Source: a phage. Taken from it: 64,000 nucleotides of DNA. The position numbers and the translations under genes are program-made. Position 1 is the stretch's first letter; each line of letters opens with the position of its first letter. The notes under the pieces were generated by a model. That model was not told the DNA's origin and did no database searches. It worked only from the letters and a program-made list of their open reading frames with translations. The stretch is from sequence record PZ445440.1. One strand, given 5' to 3'. This document shows, piece after piece, positions 17,634-35,082 of this stretch.

Positions 17634-18104
17634 TTAATCATGTTTCCACACCCCATCGGTATTTGACCAAAGTCGCTGATTATCTGATCCTCGCCACAGC
17701 TTTTTAGTCGGAAGATTTTTCTCATACTTCCCATCAATAATAACATCAACATATTTAAGCATTTCTAGTTGTTTAATATCTTCAAACTTATATCCTGTCC
17801 ACAACCAAATGCTTTTATTGGGATAAAGATTTTTTACTGTTTGAGCAATGCGATGAATAACATCTCGGTTATCAGGATAGAGAGGGTCACCTCCGGTTAT
17901 AGTTAATCCTTCTATATAATCATTATTCAAACATTCAATTAATTGTTCTAGTGTTTCACCGGTGAATGGAACACCATTTCTAGCATTCCATGTTGATTTA
18001 TTATAACACCCTTCACATTTATGCAAACAACCTGTAACGAAAAGAACGACCCTGCAACCAGGGCCATTCACAAAATCGCAAGGATAAAATCTATCATAAT
18101 TCAT
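17634..18104 (-). CDS. nrdG: anaerobic ribonucleotide reductase activating protein NrdG (radical SAM)
   Basis: CDFVNGPGCRVVLFVTGCLHKCEGCYN cysteine cluster. Confidence 0.9.
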   Translation of the reverse strand: MNYDRFYPCDFVNGPGCRVVLFVTGCLHKCEGCYNKSTWNARNGVPFTGETLEQLIECLNNDYIEGLTITGGDPLYPDNRDVIHRIAQTVKNLYPNKSIWLWTGYKFEDIKQLEMLKYVDVIIDGKYEKNLPTKKLWRGSDNQRLWSNTDGVWKHD

Positions 18105-19918
18105 TGGTGTTTAACCCTATGCATGATTTCTTTATTTTTGCCTAGATTAAATCCGCGTTCGTTTGGATTTCCCAAATAACCGCATGTTCTTCTTATTGTG
18201 TTCATCTTTTTAGGATCAGTTTCTCCGCAAACTGAACAAACAAATCCATTTTCAGTAGGAGTCATTTCATGAGTACTTCCGCATGTAAAACATTTATCTA
18301 CTGGCATATTAACACCAAAATAATCTAAATGTTGTGCAGCATAATCCCAGACAGCCTCAAGTCCTTTTAAGTTATTTTTCATATCAGGAAGTTCAACATA
18401 AGAAATGTGACCACCTGTCGCAATGAAATGATATGGCGCTTCACGAGAAATCTTTTCAAACGGAGTAATATTTTCTTCTACTGAAACATGGAAACTATTA
18501 GTGTACCAGCCTTTATCGGTAACATCTTTTACGCTTCCATATTTTTCTGTATCGAGTTTACAAAAGCGATAACAAAGGTTTTCAGCAGGAGTAGAATATA
18601 AACTAAAAGCAAATCCGGTTCTTTCAGTCCACTGTTTAAGATGAGCATTCATTTTAGTTAAAATTTCTTGTCCAATATCACGACCGACAAGAATATTCAA
18701 TTCGTGAATACCGATGTATCCCAAAGACACTGAACTTCTACCATTTTTAAATAACTCAATTATGTCATCATCAGGTTTAAGACGAACCCCGAATGCACCT
18801 TCTTGGTAAAGAATAGGAGCAACAGTAGCTTTAACTCCTTTTAAGGAACTAATTCTACACATCAAGGCTTCAAAACACAGGTCCATTCGCTCGTCGAACA
18901 ATTCAGTAAATTTCTGTTCATTGAACTGTGTTCCAATATAAGAATCTAATGCGATACGAGGAAGATTCAGTGTTACAACACCGAGATTATTACGTCCATC
19001 AAGAATTTCATTACCAGTCGAATCTTTCCATACGCTCAAGAAACTACGGCAGCCCATTGGAGAAACTGGAACTGAAGAACCGGTAATAGCTTTATTATTC
19101 TTAACCGAAATAATGTCAGGATACATTCTTTTGCTTGCACATTCTAACGCAAGTTGTTTAATATCATAGTTCGGATCATCTTTATAAAGATTAACACCTT
19201 CTTCAACAAACATAACAAGCTTAGGGAAAATAGGAGTTATTCCATCACGACCAAGACCTTTAATGCGGTTTTTAAGAATTGCCTTCTGAATCATTCGTTC
19301 AGTCCAATCGGTTCCCGTACCAAATGTAATTGTTACAAAAGGAGTTTGTCCGTTTGAACTAAAGAGAGTATTTACTTCATATTCATAAGCTTGGAATGCG
19401 TCATAGACATCTTTTTCTGTTTTAGATTGAGCATAATTCAGAATGTCTGGTATTTGCCATTTTTCTGCATCTTCAACATGTTTAGCGTATGTGCGTTTAA
19501 CATAAGGAGAAAGAACTTTATCGACATTCGCAAATGTAGTTCCGCCATACTGGTGTGAAGCAACTTGCGCGGTAATTTGTGCCATAATTGCAGTAGCAAC
19601 GCCAATTGATTTAGGAGTTTCAATCTGTGCATTACCAAGCTTAAATCCGTTCTCAAGCATTCCTTTTAAATCTACTAAACAGCAATTAGTAAATGGAAGA
19701 GCAGGAGAATAATCAATATCATGCATGTGAATGATTCCGCTTTCATGCGCATTCATAATAAAAGACGGGACCATATTTTTGGCAATGTGCTTAGACACAA
19801 TACCAGCCATAAGGTCCCGTTGAGTTGGAAAAACACGAGAATCTTTATTAGCATTCTCGTTCAAAAGATCTTTATTAGTTTTATGAATTAATCCTTCAAT
19901 TTCTTTTTCAATTTTCAT
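18101..19918 (-). CDS. nrdD: anaerobic ribonucleotide reductase NrdD (glycyl radical enzyme), uninterrupted
   Basis: 605 aa, C-terminal RRTCGYLG glycyl-radical motif and CxxC zinc ribbon. Confidence 0.95.
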   Translation of the reverse strand: MKIEKEIEGLIHKTNKDLLNENANKDSRVFPTQRDLMAGIVSKHIAKNMVPSFIMNAHESGIIHMHDIDYSPALPFTNCCLVDLKGMLENGFKLGNAQIETPKSIGVATAIMAQITAQVASHQYGGTTFANVDKVLSPYVKRTYAKHVEDAEKWQIPDILNYAQSKTEKDVYDAFQAYEYEVNTLFSSNGQTPFVTITFGTGTDWTERMIQKAILKNRIKGLGRDGITPIFPKLVMFVEEGVNLYKDDPNYDIKQLALECASKRMYPDIISVKNNKAITGSSVPVSPMGCRSFLSVWKDSTGNEILDGRNNLGVVTLNLPRIALDSYIGTQFNEQKFTELFDERMDLCFEALMCRISSLKGVKATVAPILYQEGAFGVRLKPDDDIIELFKNGRSSVSLGYIGIHELNILVGRDIGQEILTKMNAHLKQWTERTGFAFSLYSTPAENLCYRFCKLDTEKYGSVKDVTDKGWYTNSFHVSVEENITPFEKISREAPYHFIATGGHISYVELPDMKNNLKGLEAVWDYAAQHLDYFGVNMPVDKCFTCGSTHEMTPTENGFVCSVCGETDPKKMNTIRRTCGYLGNPNERGFNLGKNKEIMHRVKHQ

Positions 19919-20388
19919 TTTAAACTCTTTCTAAGCTGCTTTTTGAATGAAGCTATTAATTGTGTTTTAGTATCAGATTCATTATATTCAAATCCTCTTT
20001 GAAGCATCTCGACCATCATTTCCTCTTTACCTAGTCTTGAGAACTCTTTAGTTTTGTCTGGAACAAAATTAGGATGGATATTATTAGCAGAATAATCTTG
20101 TTTCAAATAAGCAAGAAGAGCTTCAAGCCATTCGAGGTAGTCGACATCACGTCCTTTAAGACCAGAACGGTTGAACTTATGCTTCATTTGGCCTTCTGCT
20201 GCGTTGCACAGAGAACAGAGTAACCCACGAACCTTACCAGCTTTTGGCCCGTTTAATTCATGGTCGTGGTCAAGATGGTTACCTTGAACATCAGGGTCTA
20301 ATTCACGGTGGCAAATAGGACACTTACCGTTCTGTGCATCATAAAATTTTTGTTTTTCTTCTTTATATTTTGCGCCTGATAATAACAT
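19915..20388 (-). CDS. 49: endonuclease VII (Holliday junction resolvase) gp49
   Basis: 157 aa, QNGKCPICHREL...HLDHDHELNGPKAGKVRGLLC matches T4 endo VII. Confidence 0.95.
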   Translation of the reverse strand: MLLSGAKYKEEKQKFYDAQNGKCPICHRELDPDVQGNHLDHDHELNGPKAGKVRGLLCSLCNAAEGQMKHKFNRSGLKGRDVDYLEWLEALLAYLKQDYSANNIHPNFVPDKTKEFSRLGKEEMMVEMLQRGFEYNESDTKTQLIASFKKQLRKSLK

Positions 20389-20423
20389 GATAAACCCTTA
20401 CCTTAAATAGATAAGGGTATTTA

Positions 20424-20849
20424 TTAACTTAAACGTCTTTCTAAATATTCAATGTATTCCGCTGCGGCTTGCATCAGATTACCTTCATAACCATCATTAT
20501 TTTCTTGACCGGCTAATTTAGCTAATGCATAAGAAATTCGTTCACCTTCGAATTCGCCAAGTTTACTACCTAGCACATCCGCAATATCAGCCGAATCAAT
20601 TTCTTCGAGTTCATCTATTGAATGAGATTCCCAGAAGCACCAAAGAGAAGTATCACGGTCATAGATGCAAAGTTTCTCACCTGTGTTCAACATCACTTCG
20701 TTAATGCCATGGTCGCCATAACCATCTTCGGTAGTAGTACCAATTACCTTGATGATTGTTCCTTTCTTTAATTCAGGAAACTTGACTTGTAGTTCTTCAT
20801 CTTCTTTAACAATCTTGAACCATTTACCGCGAGTTTCAGAAATATTCAT
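20424..20849 (-). CDS. hypothetical protein
   Basis: track ORF trimmed to internal ATG (MNISETRGKW...). Confidence 0.5.
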   Translation of the reverse strand: MNISETRGKWFKIVKEDEELQVKFPELKKGTIIKVIGTTTEDGYGDHGINEVMLNTGEKLCIYDRDTSLWCFWESHSIDELEEIDSADIADVLGSKLGEFEGERISYALAKLAGQENNDGYEGNLMQAAAEYIEYLERRLS

Positions 20850-20850
20850 A

Positions 20851-21048
20851 TCAATATTCTCTATAAAAGTTACGATGAGAACGTTTAGCTTTGCGAAGCT
20901 GACGTTTAGTAGGACGAACTGTAAATGGTTGTCCAGAGAAAAAATTCGGATCGGTTTTAATAAGCAAATACCAATCATGTTTGCCATTTTTTAATAAACG
21001 GTACAATAATTTAACTTGCATAATAATCTCTTCCCATTTCCATATCAA
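20851..21048 (-). CDS. hypothetical basic protein
   Basis: track ORF. Confidence 0.45.
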   Translation of the reverse strand: MIWKWEEIIMQVKLLYRLLKNGKHDWYLLIKTDPNFFSGQPFTVRPTKRQLRKAKRSHRNFYREY

Positions 21049-21149
21049 TTAATTCATTTATTGAAGGTTCATCATAACATGGTTCTTCGTCGTTGTAAAC
21101 TGTTTCGACGTCTGGCTCGACTGTCTCCCATCGAGCAGAATACCACGGT

Positions 21150-21506
21150 TTAACCCCGGAGTTTATTGAGCTCTTCATAATCAATCCAGGATTCTAGCCC
21201 TGATGGCAGGTCACATTCAATGTTCCACAGAAGCTCTTCAATGGCTTGCAGGCGATTATATTCTTCAACGGTAATGGTAACCATTGGTGCAACCGGTTCT
21301 GCCTTTTTAACCATCATATCGTTCATCAGGACGTAAAGGTCATCACGAACGACAGTGTCGTTCCATCCCCATGATTTGGCTTCGTAAGCTAATGATGAAG
21401 GGAGCACATTTAAAACTTCAATAATAGTTGGAGCATCAGGACCAAGTTCATTGGCACAAACTTCGTATACATCTTGGAAATCTTTAAGATTTAATGAATA
21501 TGTCAT
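21150..21506 (-). CDS. hypothetical protein
   Basis: track ORF. Confidence 0.5.
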   Translation of the reverse strand: MTYSLNLKDFQDVYEVCANELGPDAPTIIEVLNVLPSSLAYEAKSWGWNDTVVRDDLYVLMNDMMVKKAEPVAPMVTITVEEYNRLQAIEELLWNIECDLPSGLESWIDYEELNKLRG

Positions 21507-21524
21507 TTAAAATTTTCTCGCAGG

Positions 21525-21821
21525 TTATTGTTCTACCCATGAACAAGAGACTTCAAAATCAGGACCACCGTATTCCCAGTGATATTCACCAACAGGAATC
21601 CAGTCACCGTGCTCGTTTTCTTCATAGTCCTCAGGCTCAAGGCCAACGAATCGCCATTGGACACCGATGATTCGATTACCCATCATTACTCGAAATTCGC
21701 CCCATGGATTATCGATAGCATACTGAATATCGTTCTTGGCACGAGAGCACATTTCTTGATATAATAAAGCTTCTAATTCACCCTGGTCATAAGGGCCAGG
21801 GAAAGTTAAATCAATACTCAT
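21525..21821 (-). CDS. hypothetical protein
   Basis: track ORF. Confidence 0.5.
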   Translation of the reverse strand: MSIDLTFPGPYDQGELEALLYQEMCSRAKNDIQYAIDNPWGEFRVMMGNRIIGVQWRFVGLEPEDYEENEHGDWIPVGEYHWEYGGPDFEVSCSWVEQ

Positions 21822-22081
21822 TTAAAATATTCTCGTAGTTGGTCAAATCCACCAATGTGACTTCCATCAGGAGCAAACACTTGAGGCATAGTCAATCCGA
21901 CTTGTGATTCACGTCCAAGCTTAACCAGAAGCTCAGCAATTTTCTCATCATCAAAAACACCTTTTTCTGGCATAACATTAATGAATTCGAACGGCTGTTT
22001 CTTAACAGTCAGCAATCGTTTCGCATTATCACAATAAATGCATTTATGAATAGTAGAGTCATACCCGTACACTTTAAACAT
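21818..22081 (-). CDS. nrdC: thioredoxin NrdC
   Basis: MFKVYGYDSTIHKCIYCDNAKRLL...GGFDQLREYFK matches T4 NrdC. Confidence 0.9.
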   Translation of the reverse strand: MFKVYGYDSTIHKCIYCDNAKRLLTVKKQPFEFINVMPEKGVFDDEKIAELLVKLGRESQVGLTMPQVFAPDGSHIGGFDQLREYFK

Positions 22082-22487
22082 TATTTTTCCTTTCATCGAT
22101 TAAATATGCAATGCCAAATACAATACATGTAATAAAACCTGTGATACAGATAGAAACCAACAACACCGTACCAAAGAACCAAATCAAGTTATCTTTAGTA
22201 GTTTGTTTGATATCCATCTCACGAATTTCTATAGCTATCGTATCACCTTTATTCAGAAGCGTATAAAACGACGGTGATACACGCCTGTCAAAAACTCGTC
22301 CTTGTTCATCTTTATAAACTGCAATAAATTCTAATTTAGAATATTTTCCTGTAGATTGGCCTGAGATTAATTCCACTACCTCCACAGGAATTACTTTAGT
22401 TTCCATGTAAGTATTCTGGCTGTTCCAAATGAATGGAATGATGGCAAAAACTAAAGCTGCAATAAAACAACGAAGGCTATATCTCAT
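22074..22487 (-). CDS. membrane protein (N- and C-terminal TM segments)
   Basis: track ORF. Confidence 0.5.
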   Translation of the reverse strand: MRYSLRCFIAALVFAIIPFIWNSQNTYMETKVIPVEVVELISGQSTGKYSKLEFIAVYKDEQGRVFDRRVSPSFYTLLNKGDTIAIEIREMDIKQTTKDNLIWFFGTVLLVSICITGFITCIVFGIAYLIDERKNNV

Positions 22488-22792
22488 TATAATGTTCTCT
22501 CAAATTTGTGGAAGCATTTACGGCATTTCAATTTCAAGTTATCAGTGGTCCAGTTAACCAGTTGGACTTGGATAGTTCCACATTCCGGACATGGATGTTT
22601 TGCTGCCGATTTGGCAGCATTTTCACGTCGTTCAACCATTTTCATGATTTCGTTCCATGCCGGAGGAACGAACTCTTCTTCACTATGAATTTTATCTCGT
22701 TGAACAAATTCAATCTTTGAACTATCGTCAATAAACTTAACCAAGCGGTGATTAGTGTTCATATCAATATCTTCTAAAAGACGTAGTTTCAT
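22487..22792 (-). CDS. zinc-ribbon protein
   Basis: CPECG...CRKC. Confidence 0.5.
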   Translation of the reverse strand: MKLRLLEDIDMNTNHRLVKFIDDSSKIEFVQRDKIHSEEEFVPPAWNEIMKMVERRENAAKSAAKHPCPECGTIQVQLVNWTTDNLKLKCRKCFHKFERTL

Positions 22793-23742
22793 TATAACAC
22801 CTCAATGGCATTTCGTAAACCATCCGCTTTAGCATTCAGAGCTTTTAACGATTTAGTTTGTTCTGCAATCTGGGCTTCGACTTCTTTCAGACGAGATTTG
22901 AGATATTCGCGTTCTTCTCTTAAGTTATCAACTTTTTCTGCTTTAGGCTCTTTAATAGACTTAGGTTTATATGTATTAGGGTTCTTCAACTTAATTTGAA
23001 TGCGAGAACTGAATAACATCGAACCGTTATCTTCGGTTTCACTGTGCATTTCTACCACATCCATGATTCTTAACATCATGCGAAGTTTATAAGACAGCGA
23101 ACGAACGGTTTTATTGTGCTTCTTAATTTCTTCAGCTTTCATGGTGCCGAGATTACGTGAGTAGTAATAAGGAACCTGGATATCAATTGATAATGATGCG
23201 TTACCATTACCAGTTGGTTTGAATACTGCAGTAACCCAATCTTTAACATGAACTTTATTTGTACGATCATCGCCGCCTGTGAATAATTTACAAGAATGTT
23301 TAAAAAGCATATTCACTTGGTTATTGAATTCACAAGCAAATTTATCAGCAAATTTAGTTTCAGGAATGGTAGTTAACCATTCAGCCAAATGAGTCTTTTT
23401 AACATCATTAACAATAGTGAATTCAACCAAATCGGTTTTAGTTGTCACAGATTTAATAAAGCTCGGCTTCATAAAGTTTTTAATGTTATCGCGAGCTACA
23501 GTAGAAGATAATAAACGAGAACGTTTGAACCATTGAAGCAACGTCCCTAACGAATGAGAATACGCATTTTGAGTATCTTTACAGATATGATTTTCTTGGC
23601 CTATGTATGTACCAAAATCGCGAAGAATACCACTTACTACATCTCGGTGTGGAACATCAAATCCTAGTGCACCAGAAGCACGTTGGGCATGAACGTTAGC
23701 GATAAGACCTGCAAAGTATTCAATGTAATGTGAACGTGTCAT
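22792..23742 (-). CDS. hypothetical protein, 316 aa, C-terminal coiled coil
   Basis: track ORF; preceded by promoter cassette 23770-23799. Confidence 0.55.
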   Translation of the reverse strand: MTRSHYIEYFAGLIANVHAQRASGALGFDVPHRDVVSGILRDFGTYIGQENHICKDTQNAYSHSLGTLLQWFKRSRLLSSTVARDNIKNFMKPSFIKSVTTKTDLVEFTIVNDVKKTHLAEWLTTIPETKFADKFACEFNNQVNMLFKHSCKLFTGGDDRTNKVHVKDWVTAVFKPTGNGNASLSIDIQVPYYYSRNLGTMKAEEIKKHNKTVRSLSYKLRMMLRIMDVVEMHSETEDNGSMLFSSRIQIKLKNPNTYKPKSIKEPKAEKVDNLREEREYLKSRLKEVEAQIAEQTKSLKALNAKADGLRNAIEVL

Positions 23743-23769
23743 AATATTTTCCTCTCGTTAAGATAGATT

Positions 23770-23799
23770 CATTATACTCCAACCATCCTTGGTTGTAAA
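23770..23799 (-). promoter_or_regulatory. early promoter GTTTAC-N18-TATAAT with palindrome AACCAAGGATGGTT in the spacer
   Basis: read from sequence; near-identical copy at 24783-24811. Confidence 0.5.
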
Positions 23800-23804
23800 C
23801 TATT

Positions 23805-24764
23805 TTATGATTTTAATGCATTCATTGCGTTAAAAAGTTTAGAATACTGCAACTGGAGATTCGTTACAACACTTTGAGCATCACGAAGCTTAGCTTGTGC
23901 TTTGTCAAGTTCAACAGACAGTTGGTCTACAGTAGCCTTGATTTGGTTGTAATGATAATCTTCGGCTGGAAGAAGGTCATTAGAAACATTTAGTTTTACT
24001 GCAGACAGTTTGCACACATTTGGTAAACCTTTAAACATTGATTTACCTGAAGTAGAATAAGCACTTAGGACTTCAGCCTGTTCAATTGGGGTCCCAGTAA
24101 GCGATGCTTCGAACGTTGCATTTTCCTTTTTAAGATTTTGATAGTATTCAGAGTCTTTGTGCCACCATGGCGCAGGAACCTTTTTACCAATAGATACACG
24201 AGCCTGGATAGCGATATGGCCCTTATTCTTGATAGGGTCGATAATATTAAGCTCACGAGAATAAATTGCTTTAATCTCATGGATATTATCGCCTAACACT
24301 TCTAGCGCTTGGTGGAATACACGAGCAACGTTATCATTCTTAGGTTTATACGTAAGAGTGAACTCGTTCTCACTGATAACCATGATTTCTAACTTATCGT
24401 AAGTGTACTTAAGATGCTTCATGTTAACCGCTTGAGGACGAATACGAGAAGCAATGGCCATCAGATTGTTAAGGTTATTCCGGAACTGCTTAGCGAAATA
24501 TTGTCCTTCACCACCAATACAAAAATTACGAAGTTTCTGTTTGGCTAATAAACGGCTGAACTCACCATTTTTAATGAACTCTTTAACGGGTGTGTTAGTA
24601 ACGCATTCAAATTGAGTAAACTTACGAGAATTAATCCCATAATACGAACAGATTTCCTCAATCTCTTCAGGAGTCTTTACAGGCATACGGATAGGATTAG
24701 GTCCTGGAGTATATGCGTTCGAGGTAAATTCTTTGATAAGTTCTTTACGTGTAATAAAAGCCAT
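23805..24764 (-). CDS. hypothetical protein, 319 aa, C-terminal coiled coil
   Basis: track ORF. Confidence 0.55.
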   Translation of the reverse strand: MAFITRKELIKEFTSNAYTPGPNPIRMPVKTPEEIEEICSYYGINSRKFTQFECVTNTPVKEFIKNGEFSRLLAKQKLRNFCIGGEGQYFAKQFRNNLNNLMAIASRIRPQAVNMKHLKYTYDKLEIMVISENEFTLTYKPKNDNVARVFHQALEVLGDNIHEIKAIYSRELNIIDPIKNKGHIAIQARVSIGKKVPAPWWHKDSEYYQNLKKENATFEASLTGTPIEQAEVLSAYSTSGKSMFKGLPNVCKLSAVKLNVSNDLLPAEDYHYNQIKATVDQLSVELDKAQAKLRDAQSVVTNLQLQYSKLFNAMNALKS

Positions 24765-24782
24765 TTTATATTCCTCATGTTG

Positions 24783-24811
24783 AAAAATTTATTATACTCC
24801 AACCATCCTTG
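24783..24811 (-). promoter_or_regulatory. early-type promoter (TGTACA -35-like, TATAAT) with spacer palindrome AACCAAGGATGGTT
   Basis: read from sequence. Confidence 0.45.
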
Positions 24812-24819
24812 GTTGTACA

Positions 24820-25656
24820 TCATTCCTTAAGAAGTTTTACTACCTGAATAAGATTAGCTCGTTCTGTTTTATTTTTACCGTTTAAGCCTGCTAATCGTGA
24901 GATTTCATCGTCAGTCTGTTGAATAGTTACATTAAGTTCGTTAATCAAAGCTTCAAAGTATTTGATTTGCTCAGCATGTTTTGATTCAAATTTCTGAACC
25001 GGAATAACGTCTTGGTTTAGTTCATCAATAAGGTCTTTAAGAGCATCTTCTTGGTTGATATCATATTCAACTTCTTTTATTTCTTCAACGAGCTCGTCTT
25101 TATATCTAACGTCTTTTAGTCCTGGTGCTGGTCCTGAAATCTCTTCTTTAAGAGTACAAACATATCCAATACGGTATCCAATGCCGGCTCGCTTGATATC
25201 AACTTCGTCGATAAATCCACAATGTTTAAGCCCGGAGCCGATTAGGTCAAAATATCCTTGACGTCGTCCTTCAAACGTTACATGAACTACTAAGACAGTT
25301 TTACCTGCAACCTTTTGAAGCTCACATTTATAAAAGTCAGTTGAACCTGAATAACGTGGATGAGTTTTAAAGTTCATCTGACGATCTAGGCCCATTTGTA
25401 AACGCGCTGTTACGGCCAGAAAACGTGTTTGGTTCTCGTTAAGATGAGCAACAATCCATTTCAAAGGCATTTTACATTGGTCACGACAGAACAAATCAAC
25501 ATATCCAAGATTACGAAGGATATTGTTAGAGTTAATCATCGACAGAACGTTAAGTTTATTCAGCGCGCTGAAGATTCCATCAGCCATTGATTTTCCGTAA
25601 CCTTTACACGCTTTAATAAGTGCTCGCGGCAGATTAGTATAGATTTCAGACGGCAT
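24820..25656 (-). CDS. hypothetical protein, 278 aa, C-terminal coiled coil
   Basis: track ORF. Confidence 0.55.
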   Translation of the reverse strand: MPSEIYTNLPRALIKACKGYGKSMADGIFSALNKLNVLSMINSNNILRNLGYVDLFCRDQCKMPLKWIVAHLNENQTRFLAVTARLQMGLDRQMNFKTHPRYSGSTDFYKCELQKVAGKTVLVVHVTFEGRRQGYFDLIGSGLKHCGFIDEVDIKRAGIGYRIGYVCTLKEEISGPAPGLKDVRYKDELVEEIKEVEYDINQEDALKDLIDELNQDVIPVQKFESKHAEQIKYFEALINELNVTIQQTDDEISRLAGLNGKNKTERANLIQVVKLLKE

Positions 25657-25853
25657 ATGAAAATCAAATTTACTCTAACCAGTAATTGATGAACTTGGAT
25701 AGCAATTTGTTCATAATTAAGTGCTCTGCGATCATTATGGTCTTTAAACCACACTTTAATCTGTGAAGCACATAAACCGTTAATTTCATGTTTTACCGCA
25801 TCAGATGTAATGCTCATAACTATTTCCTCAGATTGAATTGGAACTCAAAACCA

Positions 25854-25880
25854 TTATAACCCGTCCTTGGGTAAAGCGTT
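25854..25880 (-). promoter_or_regulatory. middle-type promoter: MotA-box-like ACGCTTTAC, 13-nt spacer, TATAAT
   Basis: read from sequence. Confidence 0.4.
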
Positions 25881-26407: not shown

Positions 26408-26426
26408 GTTTTACCTCCAGTAGTTG

Positions 26427-26463: not shown

Positions 26464-26465
26464 AA

Positions 26466-26753
26466 CTAAAAGAAACTTTTTTCGGTATTTTTTCCACTGA
26501 ACCAAACCGACTTCGGGATTTTTTGTAATTTTTCAGATTTAAGTTTCTCTTCCTGTTCTTTCTTATATACACCCTTGTCGTACTGGAGCATCTCTATGGC
26601 ATTCTTTTGCAAACGATCTAAGGTAATTAAGGCTTTAGTTTTTCCTTTCAAGGAAGAGTCCTGGCGAACCTCCTCACTATATTGCATCGTAGAACTAACC
26701 ATACGATGAGCATACAGTTCGACTGCGGCTTTAATTTTTTGCATAAAATCCAT
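26466..26753 (-). CDS. hypothetical protein
   Basis: track ORF. Confidence 0.45.
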   Translation of the reverse strand: MDFMQKIKAAVELYAHRMVSSTMQYSEEVRQDSSLKGKTKALITLDRLQKNAIEMLQYDKGVYKKEQEEKLKSEKLQKIPKSVWFSGKNTEKSFF

Positions 26754-26891
26754 AACATATCCTCTTTGATTTGTACATCATTATTTTTAAATATTTCTAT
26801 GCCCTCAGTAGGTTCCTGGTGTCCTTCTTTGAGGTAAGCCATATGATTATTCATCTTTATGGCTTTTGTTACCTCAGAACTTCCTATAAGC

Positions 26892-27872: not shown

Positions 27873-27903
27873 TTTATTCTCCAAATTTACTCATTTCGTT
27901 TCG

Positions 27904-27939
27904 ATAGGTCTATAATAACATATCCTAAAAGCATGTACA
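27904..27939 (-). promoter_or_regulatory. early-type promoter (TGTACA, TTATTAT) with GATAGGTCTA element
   Basis: read from sequence. Confidence 0.4.
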
Positions 27940-27968
27940 CTACTTTTTAAAAATATTTTGACCCCCTA

Positions 27969-27986
27969 AAGGGCCCGAAGGCCCTT
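27969..27986 (-). terminator. hairpin AAGGGCC-TTCG-GGCCCTT downstream of 27988 gene
   Basis: read from sequence; U-tract not immediately adjacent. Confidence 0.35.
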
Positions 27987-27987
27987 A

Positions 27988-28977
27988 TCATTTATAGTAC
28001 GAATTGTGGTTTTCTAAGTAGACTTGTTCAAGGAAGTCATCCCAGAAACTCATATCTACTTTTTGTTGCATACCATTCTTAGCAGCTTGTTCTGCTGCAT
28101 GTTCAACTTGGTCAACGATATCTTCTAGGAATTCCTGTATGGTTTTAAACGTATGTTTACCAAGCTTAACATCGAGAATAAATGGAGCATCCTGAAGCGG
28201 GTAAACCAGGTCGCCGGTTTTGTAAATTTCTAGGAGCTGAAGTCCACCACGGCATGCATGACTCAATGCTTTCCAATCAATACCTTCATTGGCTTCTGCC
28301 TTACGAGCACGTTCACCGTAGTTCTCTTCAAGTTTAACCAGGATGGCATTGAACTCTTTATTGGTTAACGTGTCTTGGAATTTACGGTCCAACAGACTAT
28401 AGAATGTTTGCTTACCTGTTTTCTCATTTTCGGTTTCAACCCACGAAGCAAATTCACCTACAGGCAGAACATTCTTCATATGTGATAAACGAATTACTGC
28501 ACCATTATCAAAGTATCGTCCCCATTCATTAGAACGTTTAAGGGCTTGACGAAGAACAGCCAGTCGAGAACCCTTGACACCGTATTTAGAAGCTTGCTTA
28601 CGGACATACCCTAAATAAGATTTCATGTTAGTGGTATAGAAACGAGACCTGTTATCTTGAATATACTTCCATACATCAGGCAAATCAGATTTAACTACTA
28701 GACTTTGTGGAGTGTGAAGCATATCTAATGCGACGGTTTCACCATCAGCAGCTAGTTTAAAGAAATATTTGAGACTATACAACTCATGGTCCACGTCGTC
28801 TTTTGTGTTCTTAGAAGATGTGTTATTCGTGTTCTTGCTCATGTGTTCTTTAACGTTACCGGTCAAGATATCACGAGCATGAGGGACATAAATTTCTTTA
28901 AAATCGACGTCAGATTCAGGAGTAGACGTTCCATAAAGGTGGCTACCAAAGTAAGCCTTAACAATCGTTTTCATCAT
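27988..28977 (-). CDS. polymerase-beta-superfamily nucleotidyltransferase-like protein
   Basis: FGSHLYGTSTPESDVDF matches hG[GS]x9-13Dh[DE]h nucleotidyltransferase-fold signature (MNT/OAS/cGAS class); C-terminal helical region. Confidence 0.55.
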   Translation of the reverse strand: MMKTIVKAYFGSHLYGTSTPESDVDFKEIYVPHARDILTGNVKEHMSKNTNNTSSKNTKDDVDHELYSLKYFFKLAADGETVALDMLHTPQSLVVKSDLPDVWKYIQDNRSRFYTTNMKSYLGYVRKQASKYGVKGSRLAVLRQALKRSNEWGRYFDNGAVIRLSHMKNVLPVGEFASWVETENEKTGKQTFYSLLDRKFQDTLTNKEFNAILVKLEENYGERARKAEANEGIDWKALSHACRGGLQLLEIYKTGDLVYPLQDAPFILDVKLGKHTFKTIQEFLEDIVDQVEHAAEQAAKNGMQQKVDMSFWDDFLEQVYLENHNSYYK

Positions 28978-29447
28978 TTAGCCTTATATTCAAGAGTAGG
29001 ACAGACTTTTTCTTTACGAGCTTTAAGGTATCCACCTATTAATGATTTCTTACGTTCAATAGGCTCAAGTCCATTTTTAATTCGTTCTTGGTTTTGCGCA
29101 ATGAGCTCAATTTCTTTATAATATTTTCTGTCGTTATATTTGTCTAACAGCCAAGACGGACCAATTACTAACCCGGTAGCAATAAAAGCCATGACTGCTA
29201 CAATTAAAATGCCTACACCAATTGAGGCTGGAACTAATGTCCATAGACTGCTAAAAACAAAGAATTTAGTTAAAATTTCCTGGCCAATGATTGTGACTGC
29301 TGCTAAAATCGCAAATCCAATAATTGAAGCAGCCAATACCGGGATTAACGTTTTCCAAAAATAAGCACACAACGTTTTCGGACGATTCCATGTACTATTG
29401 AACGCGGCATAAATTTTAAAGTGCCAAGAGTTTTCATTGATAATCAT
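28974..29447 (-). CDS. membrane protein (3-4 TM)
   Basis: track ORF. Confidence 0.55.
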   Translation of the reverse strand: MIINENSWHFKIYAAFNSTWNRPKTLCAYFWKTLIPVLAASIIGFAILAAVTIIGQEILTKFFVFSSLWTLVPASIGVGILIVAVMAFIATGLVIGPSWLLDKYNDRKYYKEIELIAQNQERIKNGLEPIERKKSLIGGYLKARKEKVCPTLEYKAK

Positions 29448-29456
29448 AATAATTCC

Positions 29457-29987
29457 TTATTTCAAAGTTGGGATAATGGAATCGAGATAAGCTTTAAGAG
29501 CTACAGCTTCGTCTTTGGTAAATGTAGTAACATGTGAACGTAAATCATCATTTTGGCGAATAGTTACTACATCACCATCTTCATAAGAATTCATGACAGC
29601 CAAAGTCGTGGTATAGTTTGGAGCTATTGGATTAATAATGTAAGCACCACGACTGATACCCCATTTAAGTTTAGCCTTTTCAGGTGGTTCGGATTCCAAG
29701 AATTCTTTCACCTTAGCAACGAATGTTTTCCAGTTATCGATAGAAAGGCATTTGTCTTCAGTTTCGATATTAGCACCGTTATAAAGCCCATGATAAAAAC
29801 GAGCCTGAAGGTCTCCACCAATATTAATTGCCGATGCATGACCAGGCGGATTGAGTTTCAAAATCTCGTCTAGTTCCATAGGACAAATAGTAATACCATC
29901 ATCTTCCTGAGTCAGAACGTATACATTACCACGTTTTTCGATAGTCAAATCACCGAACAGTTCGGTTGTTTCAATTACAGTTTTCAT
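29457..29987 (-). CDS. hypothetical protein
   Basis: track ORF trimmed to ATG (MKTVIETTELFGD...). Confidence 0.55.
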   Translation of the reverse strand: MKTVIETTELFGDLTIEKRGNVYVLTQEDDGITICPMELDEILKLNPPGHASAINIGGDLQARFYHGLYNGANIETEDKCLSIDNWKTFVAKVKEFLESEPPEKAKLKWGISRGAYIINPIAPNYTTTLAVMNSYEDGDVVTIRQNDDLRSHVTTFTKDEAVALKAYLDSIIPTLK

Positions 29988-29988
29988 A

Positions 29989-30168
29989 TTATTCACCAAT
30001 TAAAGTTTCAACAAAATTCACCAAATCATTCTGACGAGCATCAACTTGTTTTTCATAAAAGTCTCCACAGTCATTTACTGCATGATAAGCTACATCATTT
30101 AAATCTGAATCAGCTTCACGTAAGTCATGGATAAGGTCCATCAATTTATTAGCTTGTTCACGGGTCAT
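29989..30168 (-). CDS. hypothetical small acidic protein (59 aa)
   Basis: hand translation MTREQANKLMDLIHDLREADSDLNDVAYHAVNDCGDFYEKQVDARQNDLVNFVETLIGE, codon-by-codon checked. Confidence 0.4.
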   Translation of the reverse strand: MTREQANKLMDLIHDLREADSDLNDVAYHAVNDCGDFYEKQVDARQNDLVNFVETLIGE

Positions 30169-30275
30169 TTTACCATACTCGTTTCAATAAGATTCACTAT
30201 GCCGTTTACCATGTTATAAGTAAACATCGGATAATTGTATTGTATCACAACGTATACGATAAGCAAAAGTTTCAT
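30165..30275 (-). CDS. hypothetical small hydrophobic protein (36 aa from MKLLLIVY)
   Basis: hand translation; ATGA coupling to downstream ORF; SD GGAGAA. Confidence 0.3.
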   Translation of the reverse strand: MKLLLIVYVVIQYNYPMFTYNMVNGIVNLIETSMVK

Positions 30276-30294
30276 TTTGTTCTCCATTTGTTTT

Positions 30295-30333
30295 GGTAGG
30301 ACTACTATAACATAGTCCTACCAAGATGTAAAC
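30295..30333 (-). promoter_or_regulatory. early promoter GTTTAC-N17-TTATAGT with perfect 10-bp inverted repeat GGTAGGACTA/TAGTCCTACC around -10
   Basis: read from sequence. Confidence 0.5.
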
Positions 30334-30566
30334 TACCGATTGTGTTTTAAATGTTGATAAAGTTCTTCAACTTGTTTAGGGTCCAAAACAATTAGGTCAT
30401 TTTCTTGGCGAAGATAAATCCATCCCTTATCCCCAGGACCATTTTTACAAAACATCACCACCATATCATCATCTTCAGCGCTTTCAGGTAAAAGTTCAAG
30501 TACGCCGTCTTCAGATTTTTCAGTATAATCGTAAAGCATAATATCCTCACATAATCTCGTTAACAT
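30333..30566 (-). CDS. hypothetical acidic protein
   Basis: track ORF. Confidence 0.5.
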   Translation of the reverse strand: MLTRLCEDIMLYDYTEKSEDGVLELLPESAEDDDMVVMFCKNGPGDKGWIYLRQENDLIVLDPKQVEELYQHLKHNR

Positions 30567-30726
30567 ACATTTGCAATTCGGTGTGGGCGTCAGCCATCTT
30601 TTTCATAGCTCTGTTAATGTCGATGTCTCCATCTTCGCAACCATGAGCATTTTCCCAATCAGATACCGCATTAGCGTACTCTTCAATCAAAAACATTAAC
30701 TTAGAAATTTTTTCTTTACGTGACAT
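30547..30726 (-). CDS. hypothetical protein
   Basis: track ORF trimmed to ATG downstream of promoter 30731-30782. Confidence 0.5.
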   Translation of the reverse strand: MSRKEKISKLMFLIEEYANAVSDWENAHGCEDGDIDINRAMKKMADAHTELQMYVNEIM

Positions 30727-30730
30727 AACG

Positions 30731-30782
30731 TTCTCCTCTAGTAAGTAAGGTTTACTATAACACAACCTGAGGAGAAGTAAAC
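30731..30782 (-). promoter_or_regulatory. early promoter GTTTAC/TTATAGT; spacer arm TTCTCCTC complementary to downstream arm GAGGAGAA that is the SD of the 30726 gene
   Basis: read from sequence. Confidence 0.5.
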
Positions 30783-30793
30783 TGATAGATGCC

Positions 30794-30820
30794 AAAAAGC
30801 CCCGACCTTTCGGAAGGGGC
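30794..30820 (-). terminator. rho-independent terminator (GCCCC...GGGGC hairpin + UUUUU) after rI
   Basis: read from sequence; near-identical architecture to 47475-47501. Confidence 0.6.
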
Positions 30821-30827
30821 TAGTAAA

Positions 30828-31130
30828 TTAGATAGATGTAGGCTCTAATTTTATTTTCATGAACTCGGCAAATTGTCTGGCAGTTTTTATGCCTTGTTCA
30901 TGACATTCAAATGCATCATCACAGGGGCTATTTTTGTAATGCTTTGCCATATACTTATAGAATTTTTCAGAATTCTCGACATTTTGAATTTCAAACAAAG
31001 TATATACGTTTTTAATCCCTGATTCCATAAAGTTATCAAAGTATGGGTCAACATATGCAGTGCCAACAATAGGAGTCGTTGCTGCAAAAAACCCCAGCAT
31101 CGCCACAATGACTATCGCTCTTAAGGCCAT
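30828..31130 (-). CDS. rI: lysis-inhibition antiholin RI (signal-anchored periplasmic)
   Basis: MALRAIVIVAMLGFFA...DPYFDNFMESGIKNVYTLFE...CDDAFEC resembles T4 RI. Confidence 0.8.
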   Translation of the reverse strand: MALRAIVIVAMLGFFAATTPIVGTAYVDPYFDNFMESGIKNVYTLFEIQNVENSEKFYKYMAKHYKNSPCDDAFECHEQGIKTARQFAEFMKIKLEPTSI

Positions 31131-31142
31131 ATAGGCCTCCTG

Positions 31143-31355
31143 TTAATTTTGGCCAGTATTTATTTTTCGCCTTTGGACGGCATTAACATCTGCGAGGTAT
31201 TTTTCCAGCTTGCGCTTGCGTGTATAATCAGCTTTAGAACCAGTTTGACGGATATCCTCGTTTAAATGAGAAATAGAATGTCCTAATTCTCTTCGGATTT
31301 CATCCAATTGGGTTACAGTAAGATTACGAAGTTGTCTTTCGTTTAATTGCTGCAT
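31143..31355 (-). CDS. hypothetical protein
   Basis: track ORF. Confidence 0.5.
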
Positions 31356-31382
31356 ATATACCTCTTGGTTAGATATTAGTAT

Positions 31383-31964
31383 TTATAACAACCCTGTCAA
31401 ATCGTTCCAATGCTTCCGGCATAATGACACATATCTATCGGTATCACCAATTTCAATTTGACTGCCATCTGTAATTGGAAGTCCGTCTTCCGTGACTCTA
31501 GCTACCATTGTGGCCTTTTTACCACAATGACAGACACCTTTAAGTTCAACAAGCTTATCGGCAATAGCCATTAATGCTTGAGAACCTTCAAATAGATTAC
31601 CTTTAAAATCTGTTCGTAGTCCGTATGCCATTACCGGCACATTGTATACGTCAACAATACGACTAAGTTGATACACCTTTTCAGTAGTTAAGAACTGAGC
31701 TTCGTCAACAAATACACAGTGAATATCCTTTTGTGCTGCAGCCCATTTATAGAATTCAAAGATATCCATGTCTTTTGTAATTATATTGGCGTCCTGACGA
31801 ATACCAATACGAGAGACTATTTCACCTTTTGAATCACGAGTATCAATAGCCGGTTTAAGAACTAATACACCCATGCCACGTTCTTTATAGTTATGTGCGG
31901 CAGTAAGTAATGAAGCAGACTTACCAGCGTTCATAGCGGCATATGTAAAAATTAAACTAGCCAT
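31383..31964 (-). CDS. tk: thymidine kinase
   Basis: 193 aa, P-loop MNAGKS, VDEAQF, C-terminal CxxC...C...H zinc site. Confidence 0.95.
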   Translation of the reverse strand: MASLIFTYAAMNAGKSASLLTAAHNYKERGMGVLVLKPAIDTRDSKGEIVSRIGIRQDANIITKDMDIFEFYKWAAAQKDIHCVFVDEAQFLTTEKVYQLSRIVDVYNVPVMAYGLRTDFKGNLFEGSQALMAIADKLVELKGVCHCGKKATMVARVTEDGLPITDGSQIEIGDTDRYVSLCRKHWNDLTGLL

Positions 31965-31973
31965 AAGAGTCCC

Positions 31974-32156
31974 TTATAGTGAATTCACGTAGTCAATGAG
32001 TTCTTGTTCTTTCCTGTCAAATGATTCCAACAATGCTTGATATTCTTCATCTGTTAAAGGAGCATATTCATCATACGCATTGGTGGCCGCTTGCTCATCC
32101 AATAGGTCGTGGATAAGTTCGAACAGTTTAGTTTTCTCTTCTTTAGTCAATTTCAT
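31974..32156 (-). CDS. hypothetical acidic protein
   Basis: track ORF. Confidence 0.5.
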   Translation of the reverse strand: MKLTKEEKTKLFELIHDLLDEQAATNAYDEYAPLTDEEYQALLESFDRKEQELIDYVNSL

Positions 32157-32647
32157 TTAGGTTCCCAATCAACAATCACAATTTCTAGTTTAGTGGAATA
32201 CGTATCTAAAATCTCTTCGATGACATCCCAGTTTCCACCACCAATACCTGCACCAATTCTTGGCATATAAATTACAGGCTTTGTTATCTTATTCTTTCCG
32301 AATTCATTTAATTCTATTATACAATTCATTAAAGCATAGTACTCAAAATTAGGTCCAGGCTCAAACTGTGTATAAAGATTAAAGCAATAAGCTTTATGGG
32401 TCTTAAAATATTTTTCATAAACCGAATAAGTCCCGAGTTTAGACTCGTCTCCGAATTCGGTTTGAAGTTTATCGGCTTCCAGAATTTTTGGATAAGCCTT
32501 TGCTAATTGTCCTGCTACACCGGCACCCATTGTATGAAAACAATTACACCCATGAGCAATATTATTACCTTTAGAAAACAGGGCGACAATATCGCCCTTG
32601 ATATAGTTTTTAATCACTTGCTGCAAGTCCTCTAGTATAAGAGTCAA
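32153..32647 (-). CDS. macrodomain protein, TARG1/OARD1/DarG-like
   Basis: KGDIVALFSKGNNIAHGCNCFHTMGAGVAGQ and YMPRIGAGIGGGNW parallel human OARD1 GDLF..SLAHCISEDCRMGAGIA and SMPRIGCGLDRLQW from memory. Confidence 0.6.
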   Translation of the reverse strand: MTLILEDLQQVIKNYIKGDIVALFSKGNNIAHGCNCFHTMGAGVAGQLAKAYPKILEADKLQTEFGDESKLGTYSVYEKYFKTHKAYCFNLYTQFEPGPNFEYYALMNCIIELNEFGKNKITKPVIYMPRIGAGIGGGNWDVIEEILDTYSTKLEIVIVDWEPK

Positions 32648-32957
32648 CTAGACGGTCCACCATAGAATTGCATGCTGCCTTATCTTTAGGTTCCGCCACC
32701 GAGCATTCTAATATTTGCCATTTTTTATGATATCGTTTAATTAAGGTAGACGCCTTGAACCTACTAGACGCCCCATCTTTTTCTCCGTCTTTATATGCGT
32801 ATAACAATTTTTGTGAAAAATCTACTTTACACTCTTGACTTTTACCACAATAATCAGACGCCGTTCTGTTTGTATACTCCGTTACATCAGTATATGTAGT
32901 ATTAGCAAGAGCGTTAAATGAAACCAAGCCAACTATTAAAGCCAACATTTTGGTCAT
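32610..32957 (-). CDS. secreted small protein (signal peptide, 4 Cys)
   Basis: N-terminal hydrophobic leader MTKMLALIVGLVSFNALA; overlaps macro gene 3' end by 38 nt. Confidence 0.5.
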   Translation of the reverse strand: MTKMLALIVGLVSFNALANTTYTDVTEYTNRTASDYCGKSQECKVDFSQKLLYAYKDGEKDGASSRFKASTLIKRYHKKWQILECSVAEPKDKAACNSMVDRLVDSYTRGLAASD

Positions 32958-33496
32958 TCTTTTATTTCCAGTAGTTTATTTGATTTAAGGTAATTAGCCT
33001 TTTCTAGGACTTCAGAAGCATATTTACTTCCAGCACTTGTCTTCCATCCAGCATTATATGAGGATATAGCTTTTCTTATATCCCCGTTATGTATATTTAA
33101 CCAATAAGAAAATTCGATATAAGCCCATCTGGCTGAATTAGACCGCTTAGATAGCATTTTCTTAATTTGGGCATCAGTCATATTATAACCAAGCTGGTTA
33201 ATTCTTGCCCTCATTGTTGGTAGATAATTTTGGAACATTCCATACGCATGGTGACCTTTCTTATCTTTAAGATTAATACCGGCAGATGATTCCTGCCATA
33301 GTATTGCGGCCATTATGTATCCAAGTCCTTTCTTATGCATATTTTCATGCGTTTTAAATTTTCCGTCCTTAGAAAACTGTTCCCCAAACTGATAAGCATA
33401 ATTCAAGTTATCGAGTTGGACATTACTAAAAGTATGCTCGGAGCTATGTGCTGATAATGAAAGAGCAAATAGACCAGCGAGTAGTGCTTTTCTCAT
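32954..33496 (-). CDS. periplasmic lytic-transglycosylase-like protein (signal peptide + SLT-like)
   Basis: signal peptide MRKALLAGLFALSLSAHS; WQESSAG...YGMFQ resembles SLT catalytic E-S and GLMQ motifs. Confidence 0.5.
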   Translation of the reverse strand: MRKALLAGLFALSLSAHSSEHTFSNVQLDNLNYAYQFGEQFSKDGKFKTHENMHKKGLGYIMAAILWQESSAGINLKDKKGHHAYGMFQNYLPTMRARINQLGYNMTDAQIKKMLSKRSNSARWAYIEFSYWLNIHNGDIRKAISSYNAGWKTSAGSKYASEVLEKANYLKSNKLLEIKE

Positions 33497-33504
33497 GTTT
33501 ACCT

Positions 33505-33963
33505 CTAGATTTTAATCACTGCTTTAGAAGCTTTTCCTGGTAGTCGTTTACTGTTAATAATAGCCATTCTGCATTGAAGAGTCTTCATTTTGAATGCTGG
33601 ATTTTCGCGACAAACTGTAAGTCCTAACCAAAGATTTCCATCGGTTATTTCTAAACGGCCTGGACGGTATTCGACGCCTTCGACAAAATCTTCATCAACG
33701 TCCGGACGAGCCGGCATTGATAAAAATTCTGCAACTTCTTTAACATGATTTTTTACTTTATGAAATAATTCAAAAACGTAATTCTCATCTATTTCTCTCT
33801 GGATGGCACGATCTAAGAGATGCTGAGAATACTTGATATGAAAGCCTGGTAGTCCAAGAGACTTTGCAGCATCTTTTATACCGGCATTTATTTTGCGGAA
33901 CTCCGTTTCAAAGATTCGACGGAGTTTATTACGGCGGATAAAAACTTCCGAATTGATAGTCAT
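33505..33963 (-). CDS. regB: endoribonuclease RegB
   Basis: MTINSEVFIRRNKLRR...HLLDRAIQREIDENYVFELFHK...RLPGKASKAVIK matches T4 RegB. Confidence 0.9.
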   Translation of the reverse strand: MTINSEVFIRRNKLRRIFETEFRKINAGIKDAAKSLGLPGFHIKYSQHLLDRAIQREIDENYVFELFHKVKNHVKEVAEFLSMPARPDVDEDFVEGVEYRPGRLEITDGNLWLGLTVCRENPAFKMKTLQCRMAIINSKRLPGKASKAVIKI

Positions 33964-33970
33964 TTTGATT

Positions 33971-34020
33971 TCTCCTCTAGTTGACAAGTCTATAGTAACA
34001 CAACTAGAGGAGAAGTAAAC
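33971..34020 (-). promoter_or_regulatory. early promoter GTTTAC/TTACTAT with 13-bp inverted repeat TCTCCTCTAGTTG/CAACTAGAGGAGA; downstream arm contains regB SD
   Basis: read from sequence. Confidence 0.55.
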
Positions 34021-34024
34021 TACT

Positions 34025-34240
34025 TTATTGATAAAACGGAGTTAAAGCCCAAGATTCTTTAGATACCATATTGGCGAAATGCCTCATCTCTTCGATTTGG
34101 CGACGACGCTGGTCAGCATAGTCTTCTTCGCCTTCTTCCTTACAATCTTCAAGGTCTTCTTCAAGATACTTTAAGTATTCACTACAAATTTTGTTGACCT
34201 TTTCTTGGAAGTCCAATAACCCAGTAATAGTAGAAGCCAT
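34025..34240 (-). CDS. hypothetical acidic protein
   Basis: track ORF. Confidence 0.5.
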   Translation of the reverse strand: MASTITGLLDFQEKVNKICSEYLKYLEEDLEDCKEEGEEDYADQRRRQIEEMRHFANMVSKESWALTPFYQ

Positions 34241-34506
34241 TAGTATTTTTCCTCAGGACGAAATACTGCACGACATGCCCACATGCTGGCTTCTTTTAGA
34301 TGTTGCTTAGCATACTTAAGAGCCTGCACTGCATCCATATCTTCTTTGGTTTGTTGCTCTGTTTCGTTTTCTTTCAAGATATATGCTTCTTCAATCAGAG
34401 CATCAAACAACAATCCAAGACGGACTTCGGCATCTTTAATAGCGTTCACTTTACTGATTTTATCATCGGTATGCGGCTTGTAGCCTTTGATGTCTTCAAT
34501 CGACAT
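34240..34506 (-). CDS. hypothetical protein (88 aa from MSIEDIKGYKPH)
   Basis: track ORF trimmed to internal ATG. Confidence 0.45.
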   Translation of the reverse strand: MSIEDIKGYKPHTDDKISKVNAIKDAEVRLGLLFDALIEEAYILKENETEQQTKEDMDAVQALKYAKQHLKEASMWACRAVFRPEEKY

Positions 34507-34720
34507 AAGGAATTTCCTCATCGGTGGCAAGGTCGTATTCGACCAATTGGATAGGCTCATTAATACCATATCCACGTACAGTGATATCAGTTGTCGGATA
34601 GTTTCCAGTAATATCACCCATTCTAAATGATTCAATGAATGATTGCTCGCCTGAGCAACTAAACCAGGCGGCAAAACATTTTAAAACATCTTCAGACCCT
34701 TCTATAATCAATTTAGCCAT
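34496..34720 (-). CDS. hypothetical protein
   Basis: track ORF. Confidence 0.45.
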   Translation of the reverse strand: MAKLIIEGSEDVLKCFAAWFSCSGEQSFIESFRMGDITGNYPTTDITVRGYGINEPIQLVEYDLATDEEIPYVD

Positions 34721-35082
34721 TATAGACTCTCAGTAAAGGTACGAGCGATAACGTCGCGCTGCTGTTCCGGAGTCAGAGAGTTAAAGCGAACTGCATAACC
34801 TGATACACGGATGGTCAGCTGCGGATATTTTTCTGGATGCTTAACTGCATCTTCCAGAGTTTCGCGACGCAGAACGTTAACGTTCAGGTGTTGACCACCT
34901 TCAATTTTAACTTTAGGTTGATGTTCAATTTCAATTTCACGGGCATTCAAACCGTAGAAAATTTCCGGGTCTACAATAGCGTCTTCTTTAAAAGTCTTAG
35001 AGACGATAATCCTGGCTTGAGTACCGTCTTCAAAATAAATAGTGCCTTTATGTGCACCTTCAAGAATTTGATATGCTTTCAT
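34720..35082 (-). CDS. autonomous glycyl-radical cofactor (GrcA/YfiD-like)
   Basis: C-terminal [55 protein letters not shown] matches E. coli YfiD C-terminus. Confidence 0.85.

Follow-up and report, generated by a model that had tools for sequence, protein, structure and literature searches.

vs.6 of an RB69-like phage: a GrcA-type glycyl-radical protein with an Escherichia coli-like coding tract

The vs.6 gene and its product

We analyzed a 64,000-nucleotide stretch of phage DNA (sequence record PZ445440.1; here called the window) with respect to vs.6, a gene on the minus strand (34720-35082) that encodes a 120-residue protein related to GrcA (YfiD), the autonomous glycyl-radical cofactor, and that carries a 3′ part closely resembling Escherichia coli grcA. 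Over the 1 kb around the gene, the window matches RB69 at 98% identity and Escherichia phage ChristianSchoenbein (Bas46, MZ501056) at 100%. The latter belongs to Mosigvirus (RB69-like, Straboviridae) and was isolated with E. coli K-12 as the host; window positions equal those of MZ501056 minus 96478. Recognized by its open reading frame (ORF) and translation, a Pfam Gly_radical match and its likeness to T4 Vs.6, the gene runs from an ATG at 35082-35080 to a TAA at 34722-34720 and corresponds to bas46_0213 of MZ501056. Four nucleotides (nt) before the ATG, a GAGG Shine-Dalgarno sequence read from the DNA (35087-35090, minus strand) overlaps the TGA stop codon of vs.7. This overlap indicates translation from a polycistronic early transcript. 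A scan of the minus strand around vs.6 for promoters and terminators gave no credible element and nothing above the shuffle expectation. The gene sits in a tightly packed vs.8-vs.7-vs.6-vs.5-vs.4 run, and the order denV ... vs.8-vs.7-vs.6-vs.5-vs.4-regB-vs.1-vs-tk is common to the window, RB69 and T4. Among the annotated genes of T4 57,000-65,000, vs.6 is the sole stand-alone glycyl-radical gene.

The original prediction, made from the DNA letters and their ORFs, had assigned to this protein a GrcA/YfiD-like C terminus including the motif RVSGY, and this was borne out by the ORF, by the Pfam search and by alignment. Gly_radical, the sole domain found, covers residues 60-101 (E = 2e-18; 67.3 bits versus a cut-off of 22.2), and Vs.6 is thus a small, free-standing protein (~14 kDa) made up essentially of one glycyl-radical domain. 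This domain aligns without gaps to those of GrcA and of PflB, the E. coli pyruvate formate-lyase (PFL). Gly95 of the RVSGY motif (residues 92-96; 34795-34809, minus strand), encoded by GGT at 34798-34800, aligns with GrcA Gly102 and with the radical site Gly734 of PflB. Loss of the radical glycine, looked for in the alignment with GrcA and the T4 homolog that had been proposed as a check, was not seen. In a global alignment, residues 62-120 of Vs.6 and 69-127 of E. coli GrcA are identical at 59 of 59 positions, while the first 61 residues of Vs.6 are ~31% identical to GrcA. The best solved matches in a phmmer search of the PDB were GrcA (6OWR, E = 1.9e-42) and PFL (1H16, E = 3e-26).

Vs.6 was also compared with known systems. 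Like E. coli GrcA/YfiD (P68066; 6OWR), it is small and stand-alone and has the same C-terminal 59 residues including RVSGY; it differs in being seven residues shorter and in that its gene lies in a run of phage early genes, not at the chromosomal site between ung and eamB. With the C-terminal radical domain of PflB (and TdcE) it shares an identical core and, in all, 49 of the 64 residues that end PflB (697-760; 77%, E = 3e-32). Its C-terminal domain is the homolog of the PFL portion lost on oxygen cleavage together with the preceding beta-strand (PflB 696-759). Unlike PflB, Vs.6 lacks the ~700-residue catalytic barrel and therefore cannot be an enzyme on its own. Much closer are the Vs.6 proteins of RB69 (118/120 identical, 98%) and T4 (NP_049730; 113/120, 94%). 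T4 Vs.6 likewise has 120 residues, is encoded between vs.7 and vs.5 and combines a phage-type N-terminal half with an E. coli-type C-terminal half; of the seven differing residues, six are in the N-terminal half and one is at position 73 (Arg in the window, His in T4). Judged by these alignments, Vs.6 belongs to the GrcA/YfiD type of autonomous glycyl-radical proteins, has an intact radical glycine and is the ortholog of T4 Vs.6, for which Y06I is the older name. The identification itself is already known, RefSeq labeling the vs.6 products of T4 and RB69 ‘autonomous glycyl radical cofactor GrcA’, and the earlier interpretation is essentially the textbook reading of T4 vs.6.

Of 50,697 phage records, 1,589 contain a homolog of Vs.6. 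As host genera, all of them facultative anaerobes, the search summary gave Escherichia, Salmonella, Klebsiella, Enterobacter, Yersinia and Aeromonas, in addition to a Vibrio phage. Names for the same gene differ between public records and include ‘hypothetical protein’ (Bas46), ‘pyruvate formate-lyase’, ‘acetyltransferase-related protein’, ‘2-ketobutyrate formate-lyase’ and ‘autonomous glycyl radical cofactor’. The gene identification as such adds little, its only practical gain being that Bas46 and many T-even records still carry the first of these names or the mislabel ‘pyruvate formate-lyase’. Antisense to vs.6, an ORF at 34837-35103 (plus strand; 88 amino acids from its ATG) encodes a low-complexity, FNFNF repeat-like sequence, is unannotated in related records and is most likely spurious.

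A host-like tract within vs.6

The two halves of vs.6 differ sharply in their relation to host DNA. When 5,426 complete E. coli genomes were searched with blastn, grcA was matched in all of them, solely by the 3′ part of vs.6. The E. coli-derived tract comprises codons 61-117 (34732-34902, minus strand; BLAST extent 34712-34904, ~185 nt) and encodes the structured glycyl-radical domain. Over the last 59 codons, vs.6 is identical to E. coli B grcA at 171 of 177 nt (96.6%), with a longest exact run of 71 nt, versus 49% nt identity over the first 61 codons. Where both genes encode the same amino acid, the codon is also the same in 53 of 59 cases in the last 59 codons and in 10 of 19 cases in the first 61 (Fisher p = 7e-4). 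The six differences between the window and E. coli are synonymous and fall in codons 73, 83 and 94 and in the last three codons. In T4, the last 59 codons match E. coli B grcA even more closely (174/177 nt, 98%; exact run of 138 nt), with two synonymous differences and one non-synonymous difference. At codon 119, T4, RB69 and the window have AGT and E. coli has AGC. The block thus spans codons 61-117 and is internal to the gene, a pattern expected from the conversion of a pre-existing phage gene.

Several measures point to Escherichia as the source of the tract. Its nt identity is 96.0% to Escherichia sp., 89.8% to Citrobacter, 83-84% to Klebsiella and 80.8% to Salmonella. Synonymous divergence (dS) from E. 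coli over the C-terminal half is 0.147 for the window and 0.047 for T4, as compared to 0.046 between E. coli and a cryptic Escherichia lineage, 0.365 between E. coli and Citrobacter and 1.04 between E. coli and Salmonella. In a neighbor-joining tree of the 177 nt, T4, RB69, the window, E. coli and Escherichia sp. formed a group in 99.7% of 300 bootstraps. The GC content of the tract (49.1%; 40.4% at third codon positions, GC3) resembles the E. coli grcA values (49.7% and 42.1%), and within 17000-36500 of the window, it is the sole E. coli-like DNA, apart from a fainter match to pflB that arises from this tract as well. Between T4 and the window, nt identity is 71-80% in the flanking genes, 88.5% in the N-terminal half of vs.6 and 96.0% in its C-terminal half.

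The N-terminal half (codons 1-60; 34903-35082, minus strand) is phage specific, with ~31% amino acid and 49% nt identity to the N-terminal region of GrcA in a codon alignment and with a GC content (35.0%; GC3 25.0%) like that of neighboring phage genes. Between T4 and the window, it shows a non-synonymous divergence (dN) of 0.053 and a dS of 0.487 (dN/dS ~0.11), that is, purifying selection, and it is kept across Tequatrovirus, Mosigvirus, Jiaodavirus and Karamvirus. Together, these data show vs.6 to be a mosaic and indicate that an old phage-specific N-terminal half was retained while recent recombination with E. coli grcA replaced the sequence of the radical domain.

Two other origins of the nt identity were considered and ruled out. 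Protein constraint or codon bias would not account for it, as the Vs.6 of RB16, a phage of the same host species, has 59/59 identical amino acids at a dS of 2.06; both are further ruled out by the difference in synonymous codon usage between the two halves, in which 9 of 18 codons (N-terminal) and 6 of 59 codons (C-terminal) for shared amino acids differ from E. coli. Transfer from phage to host is contradicted by the vertical divergence of E. coli grcA, as seen in its dS to Citrobacter and Salmonella, and by the host-like GC and GC3 values of the tract.

The same low synonymous divergence and host-like GC content would also fit a third scenario, namely that the host-like 3′ half is a neutral recent capture, or an assembly or propagation artifact, that has no selected function. 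We consider this extremely unlikely. With ≥95% identity to nt 200-384 of E. coli grcA, the tract occurs in ~640 independently sequenced phage records (T-even type), always in frame and in the same gene. Sewage isolates carry three to six synonymous differences from E. coli within it, so that it is not copied anew at each laboratory passage. Furthermore, an intact RVSGY persists in distant lineages in which dS is saturated and amino acid changes are few or absent, RB16 being the example given above. We found no earlier description of the vs.6 mosaic in the searchable literature, which is no proof of its being unpublished. The conversion tract is the one feature here that deserves follow-up; it is an unusually clean case of recent gene conversion from a host to a virulent phage and a useful marker for the sampling of host DNA by strictly lytic phages.

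Proposed role as a spare part for host pyruvate formate-lyase

For the T4 ortholog, biochemical work offers a direct precedent. In PMC8683613 (citing Wagner et al. 2001, BBRC 285:456) and in the 2026 review PMC13450708, YfiD and T4 Y06I are named as the only two validated spare-part proteins. According to these sources, PFL activase installs a glycyl radical on Y06I, and the activated protein forms a complex with O2-cleaved PFL and restores its activity in vitro. The repair of oxygen-damaged PFL by a T4 homolog, which the original prediction had mentioned, is thus confirmed by the literature. Our own comparisons establish the identity of the domain, its intact radical glycine and the orthology with T4 Vs.6; activation and PFL rescue come from the literature on the T4 ortholog.

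On this basis, Vs.6 probably serves host PFL as a spare radical domain that PflA activates. PflA, the radical S-adenosylmethionine (SAM) activase of the host, would abstract hydrogen from Gly95, which lies in the RVSGY loop, and the C-terminal domain of Vs.6 (~61-120) would fill the place of the PflB radical domain lost by O2 cleavage at Gly734. The Vs.6-PflB complex would then restore the conversion of pyruvate and coenzyme A (CoA) to acetyl-CoA and formate. Under fluctuating oxygen in a facultative anaerobe, ATP would be kept flowing through Pta-AckA, and formate would remain available as a reductant for NrdD, the anaerobic ribonucleotide reductase (RNR) encoded by the phage. The earlier suggestion that the phage sustains host fermentation during infection goes beyond the evidence, as it extrapolates from in vitro work on the T4 protein. 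Such a role would be expected to benefit the phage during infection, to provide NrdD with formate and to make up for a shut-off of host grcA expression.

The divergent N-terminal half bears on how closely this role would follow that of GrcA. Residues 1-60 of GrcA are disordered and aid binding to cleaved PFL and radical installation, and catalysis proceeds without them (PMC8683613). If these steps are governed by a region that in the phage protein is only ~31% identical, and if the phage version has been conserved across genera under purifying selection, implying a function of its own, Vs.6 might instead be a decoy or modulator that titrates PflA or occupies PFL/TdcE, redirecting or stopping host pyruvate metabolism. 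We regard this as unlikely: T4 Y06I, 94% identical including the N-terminal half, restored PFL activity in vitro, as far as reported in PMC8683613 citing Wagner 2001, and a decoy would have no need for an exact catalytic domain with a maintained radical glycine.

Some observations weigh against the assignment of Vs.6 as a PFL spare part. The NCBIfam equivalog model for GrcA, TIGR04365, was the best NCBIfam match but scored 159.1 bits (E = 5.8e-47), below its cut-off of 170 bits; this shortfall is due to the divergent N-terminal half, the alignment beginning at residue 18. The same divergence may mean that targeting or kinetics differ from those of GrcA, although the T4 protein that worked in vitro with E. 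coli PFL and its activase PFL-AE has essentially the same N-terminal half. The host already makes GrcA, which leaves the added value of a phage copy unexplained; a shut-off of host expression after infection is one possibility. A literature search for an in vivo phenotype of a vs.6 mutant found none. Finally, vs.6 is not adjacent to nrdDG in this genome, and its link to NrdD rests on biochemistry and one other phage lineage.

The nrd genes and vs.6 homologs in other phages

The original prediction, which spanned 17634-35082, had described NrdD, NrdG and an NrdH-like redoxin as joined by the vs.6 product into one anaerobic nucleotide-metabolism module. The two enzymes are present as claimed, both with Pfam matches and NCBIfam equivalogs above the cut-offs. 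nrdG, encoding the radical-SAM activase of NrdD, lies at 17634-18104 (minus strand; TIGR02491, 198.9 bits versus a cut-off of 126.1), and nrdD, encoding the class III anaerobic RNR (bas46_0179), lies at 18101-19918 (minus strand; Pfam NRDD, E = 1.7e-171; NF006732, 907 bits, above cut-off). A redoxin is also found in the range, its sole member being NrdC (21818-22096, minus strand), a T4-type thioredoxin with a glutaredoxin fold (Pfam Glutaredoxin, 28.5 bits versus 22.9) that is annotated as NrdC in MZ501056 and RB69; the NrdH part of the claim did not hold for this interval. The gene annotated as glutaredoxin NrdH lies outside it at 16699-17022 (minus strand), scores 21 bits, under the Pfam cut-off of 22.9, and had no NCBIfam match.

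A physical module was not found. All four genes, vs.6, nrdD, nrdG and nrdC, are on the minus strand, but vs.6 lies among unrelated early genes, 14.8 kb and 33 annotated genes away from nrdD, and neither adjacency to nor co-transcription with nrdD/nrdG was seen for vs.6 here. The intervening genes include those for endonuclease VII, the Lon inhibitor pin, nrdC, the nrdC.x series, rI, tk, a macro-domain protein, vs and regB, and nucleotide-related genes in the region are limited to nrdG, nrdD, nrdC and tk. The module framing can be defended on functional grounds, through formate, and as a physical unit in another phage, phiAS5; it is unsupported as a physical arrangement in this genome.

The proximity seen in phiAS5 raises the question of whether Vs.6 serves NrdD itself. 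Like PFL, NrdD is cleaved by O2 at its glycyl radical, and Vs.6 could be its spare radical domain, activated by the phage NrdG, which would give it a direct part in nucleotide metabolism. Both proteins carry the Pfam Gly_radical domain, on which ground Nolan et al. 2006 (PMC1524935) proposed a nucleotide-metabolism role, and PMC8683613 speculates on spare parts for other glycyl-radical enzymes. In Aeromonas phage phiAS5 (HM452126), the homolog (ADM80008) directly follows nrdG, overlapping its stop codon by 4 nt; the order nrdD-nrdG-homolog-nrdC-nrdH (1376-4944 of the examined locus) forms a true physical module, unlike that of the window. Among the loci examined, it is the only one in which a vs.6-like gene adjoins nrdG. 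The phiAS5 protein, annotated as hypothetical, shares with Vs.6 a PFL-type radical domain, has 125 amino acids and is ~43% identical.

Pairwise comparison argues against substitution in NrdD. BLASTP detected no similarity between Vs.6 and the NrdD of the window (best E = 6.3), and the NrdD radical loop reads RRTCGYLG after a Cys-rich segment, compared to RVSGY in Vs.6, the domain of which is 100% identical to that of GrcA and 77% identical to that of PflB. The phiAS5 homolog is itself of the PFL type, unlike the NrdD beside it with the loop RRVCGYLG. The nucleotide-metabolism role suggested in PMC1524935 is, therefore, unsupported as far as direct replacement of the NrdD domain is concerned. 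All three alternatives to a PFL spare part are unlikely, this one very much so.

A functional tie of vs.6 to anaerobic deoxynucleoside triphosphate (dNTP) synthesis through formate is plausible. PFL is the cell's source of formate. In class III RNRs of the kind found in E. coli and T4, formate supplies both reducing equivalents, and a formate site has been proposed in T4 NrdD (PMC4493059). A path from PFL through formate to NrdD would give a concrete reason why phages of facultative anaerobes combine an anaerobic RNR with a PFL spare part. NrdD was found in 2,926 phage records, and nrdD and a vs.6 homolog are both present in Baret, a T5-like phage. In T5-like phages, the homologs adjoin a tRNA cluster; one of them, in IrisVonRoten (MZ501075; Demerecviridae), is ~53% identical, follows the tRNA cluster at 5001-5369 of the examined locus and is labeled ‘putative formate acetyltransferase’.

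Traces of further exchange with hosts were found in other lineages. In Klebsiella phages, an N-terminal half of the T4 or RB16 type, orthologous to that of E. coli phages, is combined with a radical domain that has Klebsiella-type residues (ETLLDAVEHPEKY), as in ValerieMcCarty02 and KP13MC5-1 (homolog at 151-513 of each examined locus). The C-terminal half of the Jiaodavirus gene is identical to Pseudocitrobacter grcA at 168 of 183 positions, with an exact run of 56 nt, and ~85% identical to that of E. coli. The Klebsiella-type domain and the Jiaodavirus match may reflect a second, older host-to-phage exchange. A search for phage tracts >95% identical to Salmonella or Klebsiella grcA found none, and the evidence for recurrent conversion, drawn from such residue and nucleotide matches, is suggestive, not proven. 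Tentatively, and short of favoring the idea, we can envisage that the radical domain is kept matched to the host by repeated gene conversion (at least two exchanges, from Escherichia grcA into T-even phages and Mosigvirus and from Klebsiella/Pseudocitrobacter-like grcA into Jiaodavirus), with the N-terminal half retained, under selection to keep PFL-derived formate available to NrdD during microaerobic infection. If so, a host-matched vs.6 would be a functional member of the anaerobic dNTP pathway, though here not a physical one.

Other genes between nrdD and vs.6 yielded minor observations. A DUF7235 protein (nrdC.5, 23805-24764), an RlaP-type nucleotidyltransferase (nrdC.11, 27988-28977) and a macro-domain protein (tk.4, 32153-32647), all on the minus strand, are unrelated to anaerobic nucleotide metabolism. 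The pin ORF (20424-20987, minus strand), encoding a PinA Lon inhibitor, has 187 amino acids (184 in the annotation), of which 53-187 form the Pfam domain; in RB69, pin encodes 137 amino acids and a separate small ORF lies upstream, and the gene in the window may carry an N-terminal extension or fusion.

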